Positions 551 through 15,811 of a DNA stretch of 20,769 nt are shown in pieces. Positions within the stretch are counted from its first letter, which is position 1. Every line of letters starts with the position of its first letter. Under the pieces are notes generated by a model that searched no databases, was not told where the DNA came from, and saw only the letters and a list, made by a program, of their open reading frames with translations. Source of the DNA: Candidatus Peribacteria bacterium (lineage in GTDB: Bacteria; Patescibacteriota; Gracilibacteria; Peribacterales; Peribacteraceae); contig JBEPVF010000019.1 in assembly GCA_041691135.1 (NCBI GenBank), positions 1 to 20,769 of the forward strand. The letters run 5' to 3'. The translations under genes were made by a program, and so were the position numbers.

Positions 551-1954
551 TCAGCGCCAGGCGCCGCCACGCGGCTCACGCTTCAGATATCGCCCACGTC
601 CCGGCTTGCCCAGAAACTTTCCGCCCTCAACGATCAACTCGCCCGCCGAGAACACCTGTCGGGCATTACCCTTCACCCGATACCCCTCAAACATCGAGTA
701 ATCGCAGCGCATGTTGTGGGTCGCGGCGCTGATCGTAAGTTCGACCTTCGGGTCCCATATCACGATGTCCGCATCGCTGCCCGGCGCAATCGTCCCCTTC
801 TTCGGATACATCCCGAAGATGCGCGCCGGAGCTGTGGCCGTGATCTCGACAAACCGGTTCAGCGACAGCTTGCCCGAGTTGACACCATGATGATGTATCA
901 ACTGCATCCGGTGCTCGATCCCCGGTCCGCCGTTGGGAATCTTGGTAAAGTCGTCGATCCCCAGCACCTTCTGGTCGGCAAAACAGAAAGGGCAGTGGTC
1001 GGTCGAAACCACCTGCAGATGGTCATGCTTCAGGCCGTCCCATAGTTTGGCCTGATGTTTTTTCTCGCGCAGCGGGGGAGTGAAGACGTACTTCGCATCC
1101 TCGAAGGAGCCGGAACTCATATTGTCTTCAATGGAAAGCAGCAGATACTGCGGACAAGTCTCGGCAAACGCCGGAACCCCGCGATCGCGGGCCTCGCGAA
1201 CCTGGTTCAACGCGTCTTCCGAAGAGAGATGCACGATGTAAACCGGTGCTCCGGCGATCTCGGCCATGGCAATCGCCCGCTGCACCGCTTCGGCCTCGGC
1301 CAGCGTTGGCCGCGTAAGCGCATGGTAGATCGGCGCAGTCTTGCCCTCGGCCAGCGCCTGCTGCACCAGCACGTCGATCACGCTGCCGTTTTCAGCATGC
1401 ATGCAGACCAGCGCGCCATTCTTCGCCGTCTGCCGCAGCGCCTTGAAGATGGTCGCATCATCGGCCATCAGCACATTCGGATAAGCCATGAAAAGCTTGA
1501 AACTGGCCACGCCCTCGCGCACCATGCTGTCCATGTCGTCGAGACCAGCCTTGCCCTCATCGCTGCCAAGATCGGTGACGATCATGTGCAGGCCATAGTC
1601 GATGCAGGCCTTGCCCTCTGCCTTCTTCCACCACAGGTCGAGCGCGTCGCGCATCTTCGTCCCTTTGGCCTGGATGGCGAAGTCGACAATCGTAGTCGTT
1701 CCACCGATCGCCGCAGCGCGAGTGCCAGTCTCAAAATCGTCGCTCGACATGGTCCCGCCGAACGGCATGTCAAGATGCGTATGCGCATCGATGCCGCCGG
1801 GAAGCACCAGCATTCCCGCCGCATCGACAATGGTATGACCTGCCGCTGCAATCCCCGAGCGCACTTCTTTGATGACTTCGCCTTCTACCAACACATCGGC
1901 AGCAAAGGTTTTTTCAGCGGTGACAACCGTTCCATCCTGAATCAGCAAACCCAT
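551..1954 (-). CDS. hydA: Dihydropyrimidinase (D-hydantoinase), 467 aa
   Basis: Amidohydrolase motifs IDAHTH, FKLFMAY (carboxylated Lys), HAEN, VHLS and STDHCPF. Start reassigned to ATG at 1954 (MGLLIQDG), which overlaps the preA stop (TGATG) and follows GGAGAG. Confidence 0.93.
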   Translation of the reverse strand: MGLLIQDGTVVTAEKTFAADVLVEGEVIKEVRSGIAAAGHTIVDAAGMLVLPGGIDAHTHLDMPFGGTMSSDDFETGTRAAAIGGTTTIVDFAIQAKGTKMRDALDLWWKKAEGKACIDYGLHMIVTDLGSDEGKAGLDDMDSMVREGVASFKLFMAYPNVLMADDATIFKALRQTAKNGALVCMHAENGSVIDVLVQQALAEGKTAPIYHALTRPTLAEAEAVQRAIAMAEIAGAPVYIVHLSSEDALNQVREARDRGVPAFAETCPQYLLLSIEDNMSSGSFEDAKYVFTPPLREKKHQAKLWDGLKHDHLQVVSTDHCPFCFADQKVLGIDDFTKIPNGGPGIEHRMQLIHHHGVNSGKLSLNRFVEITATAPARIFGMYPKKGTIAPGSDADIVIWDPKVELTISAATHNMRCDYSMFEGYRVKGNARQVFSAGELIVEGGKFLGKPGRGRYLKREPRGGAWR

Positions 1955-3369
1955 CAGCAACTCTCTCCGGTGAGACACGCAGCAGTGCGTTCTTCCCACG
2001 TCTCCGCAGGCAGATGAGTCTTGACCTCGACCATCGTGATGCACGCGTCGACAGGGCAAACCAGCGAGCACAGATTGCAGCCGACGCACTCCGTCTCGTC
2101 CACACGAGGAATGCGAGCAAGAGGAGTTGCATAAGATTTACGAGCCAAGTTGCCATCGAGCTTCGGAATCGGAGTGACTGTAATGCTGCTTCGACTTGCC
2201 GCTTCCACTTCAGACGGCTTTGCATGCACCTCGATAGGACCATTGACTTGCCCGCTCACGCGGTCGACATGGATACACTGATGCGCTCCATCCCAACATG
2301 CTGTGTAGCAAAGCCCGCAGCCAATGCACTTCGCCTCATCGATGTGCGCGACGACCTTGTAGTTGAGGTTCAGGTCCTTCCATTCGGTCACCTTCGGCAG
2401 GCTGAGCCCGCGAAAGTCTTCGATGGAGTGAAAGCCCTTCTCGCACATCCAGTTCTCAAGGCCGTCGATCATGTCCTCGACGATGCGATATCCGTGGTGC
2501 ATGACCGCTGTACAGACCTGCACCGCTCCAGAACCGAGGAGAATGAACTCCGCAGCATCTTTCCACGTAGCGATGCCGCCGACTCCAGAGATAGGCAGCA
2601 TCGCCTCCGGATCGCTCATCACCTGCTGCACCATATTGAGCGCAATCGGCTTCACCGCTGGTCCGCTATAACCGCCATGCGAGGATCTGCCATCAACATT
2701 CGGCTGCGGCATCAACGTATCCAGATCGATGCTCGTGATGGAGTTGATGGTGTTGATGGCAGCGAGCGCATCGGCGCCCCCACGTTTCGCCGCTCGCGCC
2801 ACCTCGCGAATGTCGGTGATATTGGGTGTCAGCTTGACGATGACCGGAGTTCTGGCCTTCTCCTTCACCCAAGCCGTAATCATCTCTGCATATTCCGGCA
2901 CCTGGCCCACTGCCGAACCCATACCGCGCTCGCTCATGCCATGAGGACAACCGAAGTTCAACTCCAGTCCATCGGCGCCAGCATCCTCCGCCTGCTGCAC
3001 AACTACGTGCCACGCCTCGCGTGTTGACTCGACCATCAAAGAGGCGATGAGCGCTTGCTTCGGATAACGCTTCTTCACCTCTGCAAATTCCCGCAAATTC
3101 ACATCAAGCGGTCGGTCACTGATCAGCTCAATATTGCTGAAGCCCATCATGCGCTGGCCATTCCAGTTGATCGACGAATAGCGCGAAGAGGTATTTGTCA
3201 CCTGCGCGCCCATCGTCTTCCACACTGCGCCTCCCCATCCTGCATCGAAGGCCCGCATAATCTGCTCGCCGGTGTTGGTCGGCGGCGCGGAGGCCAGCCA
3301 GAATGGATTTGGCGACTCGATGCCAGCAAAGGTTACGGAGAGATGCGGTTTCACGCTGTACTTAGACAT
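1954..3369 (-). CDS. preA: NAD-dependent dihydropyrimidine dehydrogenase, FMN/Fe-S subunit
   Basis: NPFWLASAPPT, LNFGCPHG catalytic Cys loop, GGYSGPAVKP, and two C-terminal ferredoxin motifs (CIGCGLC, CVGCNLCSLVCP). Confidence 0.93.
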   Translation of the reverse strand: MSKYSVKPHLSVTFAGIESPNPFWLASAPPTNTGEQIMRAFDAGWGGAVWKTMGAQVTNTSSRYSSINWNGQRMMGFSNIELISDRPLDVNLREFAEVKKRYPKQALIASLMVESTREAWHVVVQQAEDAGADGLELNFGCPHGMSERGMGSAVGQVPEYAEMITAWVKEKARTPVIVKLTPNITDIREVARAAKRGGADALAAINTINSITSIDLDTLMPQPNVDGRSSHGGYSGPAVKPIALNMVQQVMSDPEAMLPISGVGGIATWKDAAEFILLGSGAVQVCTAVMHHGYRIVEDMIDGLENWMCEKGFHSIEDFRGLSLPKVTEWKDLNLNYKVVAHIDEAKCIGCGLCYTACWDGAHQCIHVDRVSGQVNGPIEVHAKPSEVEAASRSSITVTPIPKLDGNLARKSYATPLARIPRVDETECVGCNLCSLVCPVDACITMVEVKTHLPAETWEERTAACLTGESC

Positions 3370-4690
3370 ATGCCGCCTCTAGCAGACGAGCGATAGCAAC
3401 ACCAGCGCGCTTGCCGTCTGCCACTGCATCTACTACTTCGCGTCCACCATTGACACAATCGCCACCAGAAAAATATTTCGGATTCGTTGTCTGCCCGGTT
3501 GAGCGATCCACGACGACTCGCCCTCGTTCCAACTGCACGTCGCGGCATTGGGACAGGAGCTCAAGCATAGGTGACTGGCCAATCGCAGGAATCACCATGT
3601 TGCATTCCAGATAGAAGGTTGAACCTTCGACAGGTTTGAGTGAGCCATCGGATCCAATCTCCATGCACAAACATTCAACGGAGGTAATGCCAGCAACGGA
3701 GGAATGAATCGCCATCAGTTGCGTCAACCAAAGAAAGTGAATGCCTTCCTGCAATGCTTGTCGATATTCAAAGTCGAACGCAGAGATATGTTCTCTGTTG
3801 CGCCGGTAGAGAATCGAAACGTTCTTCGCTCCAAGCCGCTTCGCTGCGTTGGCCGCATCAATGGCGGTGTTGCCTGCGCCAACTATGACTACATCGCCCG
3901 CAATCTGAGAGGTCTTTCCCATCTTGTAGTCTTCGATGAATTGCAGAGCGTCGATAACGCCGGGATGAGATTCGCCCGGAATAGATAGCCGATGCATTGC
4001 GCCAAGGCCTACGCCGATGAAGATCATGGCGAACTCGGCTTCGAGTTGAGCGAGTGAGCTCTCGCCGGAAACTTCGACGCCAAACCGGAACTCTACGCCC
4101 AGCTCCTTGATCAGCTCAATCTCGCCAAGGCTATCTGTCAGTGGTAGCTTGTACTCCGCGATTCCATAGGTATTCAAACCGCCGGGTAGAGGACGCTTGT
4201 CAAAGATAGTTACTTGGAAACCTCGCTGCTGCAACTCTGTCGCTGCTGCTAATGATGCCGGGCCAGCGCCTATGCAGGCAATCTTTTCAGGCCGATTCTC
4301 GTCCGACTTTCGCGATAGCTTGCCGCCCTGTGCATGGAAGCTATCCATTGCAAATCGCTGGAGCCGCCCAATATCAATCGGCTGTTCGTTGAAGCCATGC
4401 ATCACGCAAGCACCCTCGCAGAGCACCTCTACAGGGCATACACGGGCGCAACTGGCTCCAAGAACATTTGCATCAAGAATGCCAAGCGCTGCGCCATGCA
4501 GGTTGCCGCTGGCAATCTTCTTAATAAACTTTGGCACATCGATATGGGTAGGACAGGCGCTGGTACAGGGAGCGTTGAAGCAATTCAGGCAGCGGTTCGA
4601 CTCAACCACTGCAGCCTGCGCCTCGAACGGCGGATGCAGGTCCCCAAACCTCTCTGCGATCTCTGGCTTCTGCTGGAGTAACTCCTGCAT
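3362..4690 (-). CDS. preT: Dihydropyrimidine dehydrogenase FAD/NAD(P) subunit (GltD-like)
   Basis: CLNCFNAPCTSACP and CARVCPVEVLC Fe-S motifs; GAGPAS and GAGNTAID Rossmann motifs; 8-bp overlap with preA. Confidence 0.9.
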   Translation of the reverse strand: MQELLQQKPEIAERFGDLHPPFEAQAAVVESNRCLNCFNAPCTSACPTHIDVPKFIKKIASGNLHGAALGILDANVLGASCARVCPVEVLCEGACVMHGFNEQPIDIGRLQRFAMDSFHAQGGKLSRKSDENRPEKIACIGAGPASLAAATELQQRGFQVTIFDKRPLPGGLNTYGIAEYKLPLTDSLGEIELIKELGVEFRFGVEVSGESSLAQLEAEFAMIFIGVGLGAMHRLSIPGESHPGVIDALQFIEDYKMGKTSQIAGDVVIVGAGNTAIDAANAAKRLGAKNVSILYRRNREHISAFDFEYRQALQEGIHFLWLTQLMAIHSSVAGITSVECLCMEIGSDGSLKPVEGSTFYLECNMVIPAIGQSPMLELLSQCRDVQLERGRVVVDRSTGQTTNPKYFSGGDCVNGGREVVDAVADGKRAGVAIARLLEAAYV

Positions 4691-4744
4691 CGATACTTAC
4701 CTCGGGATAAACAAAATCGTCGTCAAGAACAAGAGAGAAGGGAA

Positions 4745-5614
4745 CTACGGCTTAACTAGGTCGCCGTACATTTCTGGTCTGCGATCGCGGTAGAACTGCC
4801 ACGTCTTTCGTACTTCGGCAACCTGATCGAGATCGAGATCGGCGGTAAGCACCTCGTCTTTGTCACGCGAGGCCTCGGAAAATATCTGGCCGCGTGGATT
4901 GCAGAAGTAGCTCTGCCCGAAGAACTCGCCGATGTTCCATGGAGCTTCTGTGCCAACTCGGTTGATTGCGCCAACGAAGTATCCGTTCGCTGCCGCATGC
5001 GCCGGTTGCTCCAACTTCCACAGATATTCGCTCAGCCCCGCGACGGTCGCAGAGGGATTAAAAACAATGTCAGCGCCATTCAATCCCAGCGCACGTGCGC
5101 CTTCTGGAAAGTGGCGGTCGTAGCAGAGATAGACGCCAATCTTGCAGAAGCCCAGGTCGAAGACAGGGAATCCAAGATTGCCCGGACGAAAATAAAACTT
5201 CTCCCAGAAGCCAGGATCAAGATGCGGGAGATGCGACTTGCGGTACTTACCGAGATATTTTCCCTGGCTATCGATCACTGCAGCCGTGTTGTAGTACACG
5301 CCTGTGCCTTCCATCTCGTAAATCGGAACGATGATGGCGACCTGTAACTGCTTCGCCAGATCCTGCATGAGCTTTATGGTTGGGCCATTGGGCACAGCTT
5401 CCGCCATGTCATACCAGCGTGTGGACTGTTCCGCGCAGAAGTACGGTCCATAGAAGAGTTCCTGAAGGCAAACTATCTGTGAACCTTCAGCAGCGGCCTG
5501 CCCAATGAGGGGAATATGCTTGTCGATCATGGCCTGTTTAATCTCGGCCAACGATCTTCCTTCATGAGGAACGCTTGTAGTCTGAATCAGGGAACAACGA
5601 ACGATACGCGACAT
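4745..5614 (-). CDS. Nitrilase-family C-N hydrolase, probable beta-ureidopropionase (N-carbamoyl-beta-alanine amidohydrolase)
   Basis: Glu-Lys-Cys triad (LQELF, YRKSHLP, CYDRHFPE), plus FWEKFYFRPGNLG and FYRDRRPE. First gene of the pyrimidine operon. Confidence 0.88.
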   Translation of the reverse strand: MSRIVRCSLIQTTSVPHEGRSLAEIKQAMIDKHIPLIGQAAAEGSQIVCLQELFYGPYFCAEQSTRWYDMAEAVPNGPTIKLMQDLAKQLQVAIIVPIYEMEGTGVYYNTAAVIDSQGKYLGKYRKSHLPHLDPGFWEKFYFRPGNLGFPVFDLGFCKIGVYLCYDRHFPEGARALGLNGADIVFNPSATVAGLSEYLWKLEQPAHAAANGYFVGAINRVGTEAPWNIGEFFGQSYFCNPRGQIFSEASRDKDEVLTADLDLDQVAEVRKTWQFYRDRRPEMYGDLVKP

Positions 5615-13961: not shown

Positions 13962-14069
13962 AATTTCATGCAGAGTGGTTGAGGGACGAGCCCTGTGACA
14001 CCACGACAACCGGACAGAACAAAGGCGTACCGGTGTCAACTCTCTCCTGGAAACAGGGAACATGAGATT
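13962..14069 (+). ncRNA. SAM-I (S-box) riboswitch
   Basis: P1 AATTTCATG/CATGAGATT; AGAG..GAGGGA..GCCC..GA kink-turn P2; P3 GACAACC/GGTGTC; P4 CCTG-GAAA-CAGG. Order and spacing match the SAM-I consensus. Confidence 0.88.
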
Positions 14070-14187
14070 AGGAGCACGCAGCCAAAATGTTAGGTTGCAC
14101 CCCATTTCACCTTCCTGGGCCGTTCGCGGCATCCCCAAAAAGAGAGCACGTCGCAGGTTCTAAACTCCTCCTCTCGGAGAGAGCGTA

Positions 14188-15477
14188 ATGAACTATTCCT
14201 GTACGGCGTATGAGCTGAAATGCAACGAGTGCGGAAAGCGGTTTGGCAACCAGCCCCTGTCCGCATGCCCCGATTGCCTGGCCCCCCTTGAAGTGGCCTA
14301 CGATCTGGAAGCAGCACGCGGTGTCTTTACCCGCGAAGCCATCGCAGCAGGTCCACCCAGCATCTGGCGCTACGCCGCTCTCCTGCCCATTCCCGCAGGC
14401 TACCAGCCCGACCTTCCTGTCGGCTTCACGCCTCTCATCAAGGCCAATAATCTCGGCAAGCGCATCGGCGCTACGAATCTCTATATCAAGAACGATGCCG
14501 TCTGCTTCCCGACCCTCAGTTTCAAGGACCGTGTCGTCTCTGTAGCTTTGGCAAATGCCCAGCGCTTCGGCTTTGATACCGTTGGCTGCTCATCCACCGG
14601 CAACCTGGCCAACTCGGTCGCCGCACAGGCCGCTCGTCTTGGCATCAAGGCTTGCATCCTCGTTCCGGCTGAACTCGAAGCCGCGAAGATCCTCAACACC
14701 CAGGTCTATGGCGCTCGTCTGGTCCGTATCGACGGCAACTACGACCACGTCAACCGTCTCTGCAGCCAGATTGCCGACGAGTACAACTGGGGCTTCGTCA
14801 ACGTCAATCTCCGCCCTTACTACGCCGAAGGCTCCAAGACGGTAGGCTACGAGATCGCTGAGAAGCTGGGCTGGCGTTTGCCCGACAACGTGATCGTTCC
14901 CATGGCAGGCGGCTCGCTCATCCGCAAGATCCGCAAGGCCTTCCAGGAACTCATCTACCTTGGTCTTGTAGAAGAGAAGCATGTCCGCTTCTTTGGCGCC
15001 CAGGCCACTGGCTGCTCGCCCATCTCCCAGGCCGTCAAGCTGGGGAATGACTTCATTGAACCTCAGCGGCCCAACACTATCGCTCGTTCCCTTGCGATCG
15101 GCAACCCTGCCGATGGTCCCGCCGCCTCGCAGATGATTCGGGCTACGGGAGGCTGGGCTGAAGATGTCTCCGATGTAGAACTCGTATCCGGTATGCAGGA
15201 GCTTGCAGAGACCGAAGGCATCTTCACGGAGACCGCCGGAGGCGTTACCACTGCCGTCACGGCTCGTCTCTACGCTCACGGACGGATCTCCCCCGACGAA
15301 CTCACTGTTGCCTGCATCACTGGCAACGGTCTTAAAACGACTGACGCGCTGTCCGGACACTATCGGGAAGAACGCGCCGTTCGCCCCCGTCTGGCTGACT
15401 TCGAGGCCTATCTGCGGGAGCTGGATGGCGCTGCCGAACCTGAACTGGCTGCCGTTGGAGGTACTCATGGCAATTAA
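14188..15477 (+). CDS. thrC: Threonine-synthase-like PLP enzyme with N-terminal zinc ribbon
   Basis: CNEC..CPDC, PTLSFKDR (PLP Lys), SSTGNLA, EGSKT and ITGNGLK. The actual substrate is uncertain (see findings). Confidence 0.8.
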   Translation: MNYSCTAYELKCNECGKRFGNQPLSACPDCLAPLEVAYDLEAARGVFTREAIAAGPPSIWRYAALLPIPAGYQPDLPVGFTPLIKANNLGKRIGATNLYIKNDAVCFPTLSFKDRVVSVALANAQRFGFDTVGCSSTGNLANSVAAQAARLGIKACILVPAELEAAKILNTQVYGARLVRIDGNYDHVNRLCSQIADEYNWGFVNVNLRPYYAEGSKTVGYEIAEKLGWRLPDNVIVPMAGGSLIRKIRKAFQELIYLGLVEEKHVRFFGAQATGCSPISQAVKLGNDFIEPQRPNTIARSLAIGNPADGPAASQMIRATGGWAEDVSDVELVSGMQELAETEGIFTETAGGVTTAVTARLYAHGRISPDELTVACITGNGLKTTDALSGHYREERAVRPRLADFEAYLRELDGAAEPELAAVGGTHGN

Positions 15478-15748
15478 AGTAACTCTTCCCGCTGCTTTCA
15501 CCCGCCATACCGATGGCCGCAAACAGTTCGACTCCGCTGCGGAGAATCTGCCCGCTCTCATCGCTGATATCGACCAGACGTTTCCCGCCCTGGGAACCCA
15601 GATCAAAGGCGATGACGGCAAGCTCCGCCGCTTCATCAACATTTATGTCAACGACGAGGATATTCGCTTCCTCGGCGGCGAGACCTACTCGTTTCAGGAT
15701 GGCGATGAGGTAATGCTGATTCCTTCGATTGCCGGTGGCACCGTCTAA
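15467..15748 (+). CDS. MoaD/ThiS/CysO-type ubiquitin-like sulfur carrier, 93 aa
   Basis: LRRFINIYVNDEDIRF..DGDEVMLIPSIAGG-TV. GGAGG RBS; overlaps the thrC end by 11 bp. Confidence 0.9.
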   Translation: MAIKVTLPAAFTRHTDGRKQFDSAAENLPALIADIDQTFPALGTQIKGDDGKLRRFINIYVNDEDIRFLGGETYSFQDGDEVMLIPSIAGGTV

Positions 15749-15768: not shown

Positions 15769-15811
15769 AAGACATAGGGTGGCCAGAAGACTTCTGGCCA
15801 CCCTATGTCTT
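15769..15811. terminator. 43-bp near-perfect palindrome after the thrC-carrier operon
   Basis: 21-bp arms AAGACATAGGGTGGCCAGAAG / CTTCTGGCCACCCTATGTCTT with a 1-nt centre. Confidence 0.65.

Follow-up and report, generated by a model that had tools for sequence, protein, structure and literature searches.

A SAM-I riboswitch-linked metM-metO-like operon, annotated as threonine synthase, in an Edaphobacter-like contig that appears mis-binned into a reduced-genome assembly

In Mycobacterium tuberculosis, the CysM/CysO/Mec/MoeZ system makes cysteine via a carrier thiocarboxylate and O-phosphoserine. In the HcyS/HcyD/HcyF/MetY system of Wolinella succinogenes, a JAB-type protease reportedly trims the carrier C-terminus; this protein-thiocarboxylate methionine pathway (Krishnamoorthy and Begley 2011) is mentioned in PMC5764234. 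Closest to the locus presented here is the MetM/MetO/Mec/MoeZ route of Streptomyces albulus, which leads from O-phosphohomoserine to homocysteine (Hasebe, Adachi, Maruyama, Hamano 2024, Appl Environ Microbiol 90:e01247-24). According to the sources through which this route is known to us (PMC12172450, PMC13759103, bioRxiv 10.1101/2024.10.14.618325 and bioRxiv 10.64898/2026.09.15.751699), MetM acts on O-phospho-L-homoserine with MetO as its sulfur carrier, Mec and MoeZ serve as accessory enzymes, and MetM is referred to as ‘MetO-thiocarboxylate-dependent’. The S. albulus proteins carry the UniProt accessions A0A059WBP2 (MetM) and A0A059W7F4 (MetO; per PMC13759103), MetM is annotated as a threonine synthase and an S-adenosylmethionine (SAM) riboswitch lies upstream of metM (PMC12172450), while the ThrC of Bacillus subtilis is 33% identical to MetM (bioRxiv 10.64898/2026.09.15.751699). 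Homologues of MetM are distributed among cyanobacteria, and a metO-like carrier gene adjoins the one of Microcystis (PMC12172450). Here we analyze a 20,769-nt contig (C19, JBEPVF010000019.1) assigned to a Candidatus Peribacteria assembly (G000, GCA_041691135.1; 1.74 Mb in 35 contigs), which is considered over its entire length (positions 1-20769) and is called the window hereafter. It contains a thrC-like gene and a small carrier gene behind a SAM-I riboswitch, a locus that we interpret, with a probability of about 0.88, as a two-gene metM-metO homocysteine-synthase operon of an Edaphobacter-like acidobacterium that would be repressed by SAM through the riboswitch; for its chemistry we draw on the literature.

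Analysis of the window recovered all three elements of the original prediction at the positions given there, namely a SAM riboswitch followed by overlapping thrC-like and MoaD/CysO-like genes (Table 1). The aptamer matches RF00162 over model positions 1-108 of 108 and above the gathering score of 44.4, represents the sole Rfam match in the window, and is nearly invariant across seven Acidobacteriaceae relatives (alignment A2). The metM-like start codon is located 119 nt downstream of the aptamer end, and the two open reading frames (ORFs) overlap by 11 nt (15467-15477), with the carrier ATG at 15467. The enzyme matches Pfam PALP (PF00291) at 4e-66 and scores 272.9 bits against the NCBIfam thrC model TIGR00260 (cut-off 167.1); alignment A1 shows no variation in its lysine motif for pyridoxal phosphate (PLP), SFKDR (K113). 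The carrier scores 44 bits against Pfam ThiS (PF02597, cut-off 22.5) and also matches MoaD/SAMP1/Urm1-type models, all of them below their cut-offs.

Comparison with the best 80 related loci (53-94% identity) from a scan in which each species was represented by one genome revealed that this arrangement is retained in several phyla. The loci stem mostly from Acidobacteriota, with others from Planctomycetota, Nitrospirota, Verrucomicrobiota, Chloroflexota, Actinomycetota, Methylomirabilota and further groups. A SAM-I riboswitch was detected by Rfam directly upstream in 57 of them, and a MetO-like ORF follows the enzyme gene directly in 70; both features are present in 50 loci, the carrier only in 20, the riboswitch only in seven and neither in three. 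The same order is observed in the actinomycete Nonomuraea gerenzanensis, where a SAM-I riboswitch (68.7 bits) precedes the enzyme gene and a 91-aa carrier ending in ...AVAGG. For phylogenetic placement, a quick maximum-likelihood tree of 98 rows was calculated after five loci duplicating genes already present and matches shorter than 300 residues had been dropped. In this tree, 82 MetM-like rows, including the window enzyme and its Nonomuraea homologue, fall on one side of a branch with a support of 83 in the SH-like approximate likelihood ratio test (SH-aLRT), which amounts to 98 when one long-branch representative is included, and five ThrCs encoded beside thrB form a separate group (SH-aLRT 99). 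Five positions distinguish the MetM-like clade, as R209, A240, T349, G352 and T384 are found in at least 93% of its rows in place of the canonical N, G, P, A and D. An N-terminal CxxC...CxxC (zinc) ribbon was also considered as a marker of MetM and rejected, since canonical Acidobacteriota ThrCs have the ribbon too.

The assembly to which the contig has been assigned proved to be the wrong background for such comparisons. The window enzyme shares 98% identity with a ‘threonine synthase’ of Edaphobacter dinghuensis and 97% with an E. paludis protein, and the window aligns, flanks included, with loci of Edaphobacter and of Acidobacteriaceae metagenome-assembled genomes (MAGs) at 78-80% nucleotide identity. 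The tetranucleotide correlation of C19 to the assembly mean amounts to 0.87, compared with 0.97 and 0.96 for its size neighbours C16 and C18; further outliers are C17 (0.86) and C20 (0.77), and C6 and C15 deviate as well. Among the relatives of the assembly, which have genomes of 0.7-1.6 Mb, 23 of 30 gave no thrC match and only two a match above the cut-off, while an orthologue of the ClpX encoded in the window was found in none of 20, the weak AAA-domain matches obtained having E values of 3e-8 or worse. On these grounds we concluded that C19 derives from an Edaphobacter-like member of the Acidobacteriaceae and appears to have been mis-binned into a MAG of reduced genome size. The earlier plan to look for a second thrC and accessory genes in the window's own genome was thus directed at the wrong organism: a profile search of the assembly returned the window's own genes as the only thrC and ThiS matches, and because the contig is foreign to this assembly, that result says nothing about the true host.

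We therefore rely on five locus-bearing genomes of Acidobacteriota, among them the complete chromosome of a Granulicella (G031) and a MAG of Edaphobacter (G032). All five encode a MetM-like gene 70-94% identical to that of the window. Each also has one or more additional thrC genes that exceed the cut-off; this second copy is 30-34% identical to the MetM-like gene and adjoins a thrB match in each genome. In one of them (G033), this thrB match falls short of the cut-off and is broken up by three stop codons. The position of a thrC beside thrB served as an operational proxy for the housekeeping copy and not as a family definition. As judged by sequence, the metM-like gene is a paralogue distinct from the housekeeping thrC, and the search for a second thrC that had been proposed was thus answered in the relatives, the assembly itself being uninformative. 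The proposed search for MoeZ and a JAB protease likewise yielded a Prok-JAB match adjoining a ThiF match in all five genomes. For the Granulicella chromosome and the Edaphobacter MAG, Pfam confirmed these genes as part of a cluster in the order PALP (cysM-like), Prok-JAB, ThiS and ThiF+rhodanese (Table 1), which we take to be the mycobacterial CysM/Mec/CysO/MoeZ layout. Two carriers are probably served by one activating enzyme and one peptidase. In the Edaphobacter MAG, a PF01053 enzyme and a tetrapyrrole methylase are encoded near the cysM-like cluster.

The relatives differ in the routes to homocysteine that they hold besides the operon. In line with the suggested check for metA, metB and metY, the Granulicella chromosome gave no strong match to PF01053 (MetB/C/Y/Z; best E 5.9e-10) and no match in a search with the MetA profile, and its weak, partial MetX-like match (103 bits) is ambiguous, the NCBIfam cut-offs being reached by 0 of 14 control genomes for MetX and by 1 of 14 for MetA. 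The picture does not extend to all relatives, as one of them (G034) carries a metA-PF01053 pair beside the operon route. The operon may thus be the sole homocysteine route in some genomes, such as that of Granulicella, and redundant in others.

The name under which these enzymes are filed follows from the profiles used. TIGR00260 scores do not separate MetM-like proteins from true ThrCs, and in the Granulicella chromosome both paralogues reach about 277 bits; because of this, the label ‘threonine synthase’ is uniform in the databases and is carried by all named homologues among the matches listed. Threonine synthase models also lead the NCBIfam matches of the window enzyme, among the best 25 of 41 of which no CysK/CysM model occurs, and the cysteate synthase model TIGR03844 matches distantly over the N-terminal half (47 bits, cut-off 325). 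The nearest solved structures are ordinary ThrC chains (E 2.7e-45), with no MetM structure found in the sequence search of the PDB. The best PLSDB match is the riboswitch-linked Nonomuraea homologue at 53.8% identity, and the others among the best 30 listed are at most 36% identical and annotated as thrC; three Streptomyces records also matched in PLSDB, but rank outside these 30. The best 120 source-named matches to the window enzyme are all from Acidobacteriota, mostly Edaphobacter, and the best 120 to the Nonomuraea homologue all from Streptosporangiales, so that no Streptomyces homologue is among those listed; cluster look-ups of ten representatives named only Micromonosporaceae. The distinct paralogy at 30-34% identity, together with a SAM riboswitch and a carrier kept across phyla, nevertheless supports the original prediction that the thrC label is a misannotation.

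Inspection of the carrier sequences revealed a feature absent from the original prediction. The window carrier ends in ...IPSIAGG-TV, two residues past the Gly-Gly, and in 24 sequences P86, A89, G90 and G91 do not vary. Among 71 homologues, 22 end exactly at the Gly-Gly, 37, a class that includes the TV tail of the window, have 1-11 residues after it, and 12 have longer tails: six conserved Cys-rich ones, three fusions to a NIL domain, one fusion to a homoserine kinase and two others. Such widespread extensions agree with the requirement for Mec in the maturation of MetO that the authors of GapMind have stated. The Cys-rich tail (...CCSYCGQEECxCG) occurs past the Gly-Gly in one Acidobacteriaceae subclade (Table 1); Pfam found no domain in the three of these tails that were checked (L017, L019 and L022), and the tail might serve in metal binding or as a persulfide relay. 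In the NIL fusions, ThiS is joined to PF09383 (L065:3757-4269, L068:4105-4635 and L091:3770-4282), while the window operon contains no NIL gene. The homoserine kinase fusion (L037:3767-5077) links a MetO-like carrier in frame to a TIGR00191 domain (215 bits, cut-off 168); it comes from a MAG labelled Limnocylindrales and could stem from an error in the MAG sequence by which a stop codon was lost. As read from this single sequence, the fusion hints at a tie between the carrier and the enzyme making O-phosphohomoserine.

The proposed modelling of the enzyme-carrier complex was carried out with MetM and residues 1-91 of MetO, for which separate alignments were supplied, and three controls. The predicted complex scored 0.48, with 0.00 for the best control; the runs share at least 66% of their contacts, and the partner reached a predicted local distance difference test (pLDDT) value of at least 82. 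In the benchmark, 116 of 157 solved complexes and 2 of 215 mismatched pairs attained the mark applied; 18 of those 157 complexes and both passing mismatches did so with scores of 0.60 or under. The prediction thus adds weakly to the case for a contact between enzyme and carrier.

Within the leader, a pyrimidine-rich anti-Shine-Dalgarno segment, CTCCTCCTCTC (14165-14175), abuts the Shine-Dalgarno sequence GGAGAGAG (14176-14183), which sits 4 nt ahead of the metM-like ATG, and a hairpin pairing the two segments was predicted in all folds tried. This part is kept in the closest relatives and the remaining leader varies with insertions and deletions. A terminator scan from the aptamer to the start codon gave no intrinsic-terminator-like site, and we infer that SAM represses the operon at the level of translation, probably by hiding the ribosome-binding site. 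A 33-codon upstream ORF (14087-14188), preceded by AGGAG and with a TAA that overlaps the metM ATG (TAATG), was also considered as a conserved coding leader; as its frame is not kept in the homologous DNA of two relatives (L083 and L015), it probably is none and was rejected. One Acidobacteriota MAG locus without a SAM-I match (L089) has a SAM-II-type match (RF00521; L089:1219-1292, 37.5 bits, cut-off 36) 1.2 kb upstream of its MetM-like gene, where a different SAM riboswitch class may control the same operon.

Taken together with the published route, the following sequence of events can be proposed. A JAB/Mec-type peptidase would trim MetO and expose its Gly-Gly end, which a MoeZ-type enzyme (ThiF+rhodanese) would adenylate and convert to the thiocarboxylate, both enzymes being encoded elsewhere in the genome. 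MetM, using PLP, would then take O-phosphohomoserine supplied by homoserine kinase, eliminate phosphate and add the carrier sulfur at the gamma carbon, so that homocysteine would be released and passed to methionine synthase for methionine formation. With SAM plentiful, the riboswitch would shut the operon off, probably through the ribosome-binding site. This gamma-replacement by the carrier thiocarboxylate had been put forward in the original prediction; it equals the published MetM/MetO reaction, and the comparative evidence fits it. A more far-reaching scenario, which we consider rather unlikely, would have the Acidobacteriota MetO usually made as a pro-protein with its Gly-Gly capped by 1-11 residues or a Cys-rich tail, the removal or the metal/redox chemistry of the tail acting as a second, post-translational control beyond the riboswitch, one MoeZ/Mec pair serving both CysO and MetO, and the operon forming the sole homocysteine route in genomes like that of Granulicella.

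Several observations weigh against the assignment as a homocysteine-synthase operon. The true thrC paralogues score 277-292 bits against TIGR00260, close to the value of the window enzyme, and the Mec- and MoeZ-type genes, thrB and the second thrC were identified by sequence in relatives only and not in the source organism. The SAM-I riboswitch is missing at the Rfam threshold in 23 of the 80 loci, although some of these misses are technical, with less than 200 nt of upstream sequence in L022, L064 and L076. The adjacent carrier was missing from ten loci in the first search; one of these ends at the gene (L035), in another the carrier is cut by the locus end (L087), and in a third it lies 1.4 kb downstream (L072). 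Simple folding of the leader singled out no switching helix, and the whole-leader z-score is only -1.61. The modelled complex is a weak pass and no proof of binding, and orthology to MetM and MetO of S. albulus is argued by analogy, from the shared architecture and the Nonomuraea protein as an actinomycete proxy. Finally, according to PMC12172450, the Microcystis homologue, 51.6% identical to MetM, acted as a threonine synthase/deaminase in vitro and caused no methionine rise in vivo, a case by which clade membership alone does not prove homocysteine synthase activity.

The Microcystis result also speaks for the enzyme being in fact a second threonine synthase, or combining threonine synthase and deaminase activities, with a functionally unrelated carrier next to it, an interpretation that agrees with the TIGR00260 score above the cut-off and with the database names of all homologues among the matches listed. 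However, these names are automatic annotations in a family that the GapMind authors state to be frequently misannotated, a SAM riboswitch would be meaningless as a regulator of threonine synthesis, a thrC-thrB pair is maintained separately in the relatives, and the 11-nt overlap with a carrier that follows in 70 of 80 loci is hard to reconcile with an unrelated neighbour; we regard this interpretation as highly improbable. Conversion of O-phosphoserine to cysteine or a different sulfur compound by the pair, acting as a ThrC-fold analogue of CysM/CysO, appears improbable to us as well. Genes of cysteine and sulfur metabolism are among the targets of SAM-I riboswitches, the carrier is CysO/MoaD-like and the enzyme shows the distant cysteate synthase match, but the latter scores far under its cut-off, and the carrier-homoserine kinase fusion points to a four-carbon substrate. 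The Granulicella and Edaphobacter genomes, moreover, already hold a dedicated cysM-like PALP-JAB-ThiS-MoeZ cluster. Because of this separate cysM-mec-cysO-moeZ cluster, the O-phosphoserine/cysteine branch of the original prediction is the less likely one, leaving its O-phosphohomoserine/homocysteine branch, which is also the activity published for the family in the sources cited above. A further alternative is that the enzyme forms homocysteine from free sulfide in the cell, MetO being dispensable or serving a different purpose such as regulation or protection. The ten loci without an adjacent carrier in the first search and the weak complex prediction would allow for this, whereas the translational coupling of the carrier to the enzyme through the overlap, its wide co-inheritance and the literature name of the enzyme, which includes its dependence on the MetO thiocarboxylate, make it the most improbable of these explanations in our assessment.

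Upstream of the putative metM-metO operon lie genes for a LysR regulator and a ferredoxin-like protein as well as a small CheY-like ORF, and downstream those for DUF5670, Lon, ClpX and ClpP, none of which is related to sulfur metabolism. The inverted repeat behind the carrier gene consists of two arms (15771-15789 and 15791-15809) that are exact reverse complements; it was not listed by the terminator scan because no T-run follows it, yet it is a probable transcription end. Further away, on the minus strand (1954-5614), the window contains genes resembling those of reductive pyrimidine catabolism, encoding PydA/PreA-like and PreT-like dihydropyrimidine dehydrogenase subunits, a CN-hydrolase and an amidohydrolase, which adjoin glnA, a porin gene, amtB and glnB.

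Table 1. Positions of the operon features in the window and of carrier-related genes in related genomes
Feature	Position	Strand	Basis
SAM-I riboswitch aptamer, RF00162	13963..14068	+	cmscan, 69.8 bits, E 1e-14
Expression platform	14069..14187	+	Sequence reading and folding
metM-like gene, ThrC-fold PLP enzyme, 429 aa	14188..15477	+	PALP and TIGR00260
metO-like gene, ThiS/MoaD-fold sulfur carrier, 93 aa	15467..15748	+	ThiS PF02597
Perfect 19-nt inverted repeat 3' of the carrier stop codon	15771..15809	+	Direct sequence reading
Cluster of cysM-like PALP, Prok-JAB, ThiS and ThiF+rhodanese	L143 (G031:C1:3714500-3724000), L144 (G032:C89:1-13500)		
Carriers with Cys-rich tail	L017:3750-4121, L019:3674-4048, L020:3753-4073		
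Further carriers with Cys-rich tail	L022:1345-1743, L024:3753-4076, L025:3753-4121		

The original prediction had regarded the locus as a candidate for an uncharacterised pathway, a claim that does not hold, as the route was published in 2024 and is already included in GapMind, whose authors note that the family is often misannotated as threonine synthase and that Mec is needed for MetO maturation. The locus is most probably a mis-annotated example of an already published pathway in a mis-binned contig, and it opens no new question. Its relevance lies in annotation and metabolic reconstruction: as the named homologues are called ‘threonine synthase’, automated pipelines would miss methionine prototrophy in Acidobacteriota, to which the genomes examined belong, and possibly in other phyla. 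The mis-binned contig would, in turn, wrongly credit a reduced organism with a threonine/methionine biosynthetic gene and with ClpX/Lon proteases.

Compared with the known systems, the locus most closely resembles S. albulus MetM/MetO, in which a PLP enzyme annotated as thrC likewise has a small carrier next to it and a SAM riboswitch upstream; MoeZ- and JAB/Mec-type genes lie elsewhere in genomes related to that of the window, which also have a separate true thrC. The locus differs in its phylum, the window being of Acidobacteriota (Edaphobacter-like) origin, and the carrier of the actinomycete Nonomuraea ends exactly at the Gly-Gly, whereas that of the window ends in GG-TV. With CysM/CysO, the common features of the proposed route are a ThiS/MoaD-fold carrier, a fold-type II PLP enzyme, an O-phospho amino acid, an activating enzyme composed of ThiF and rhodanese and a JAB peptidase. 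In contrast to that system, the window enzyme belongs to the ThrC subfamily and not to CysK/CysM, the operon is under putative SAM control, and a gamma-replacement on O-phosphohomoserine is expected in place of a beta-replacement on O-phosphoserine. The Wolinella HcyS system likewise employs the thiocarboxylate of a ubiquitin-like carrier as sulfur donor for homocysteine, although with an O-acetylhomoserine sulfhydrylase (fold type I, PF01053), whereas a ThrC-fold enzyme and a phospho-ester substrate are proposed here. Canonical ThrC, as represented by the Thermus thermophilus enzyme (PDB 1UIM), has the fold, the PLP-lysine motif and the expected O-phosphohomoserine substrate in common with the enzyme of the window, which in turn is set apart by its 30-34% identity to the thrB-linked ThrCs, the five clade positions, its partners and its regulation.

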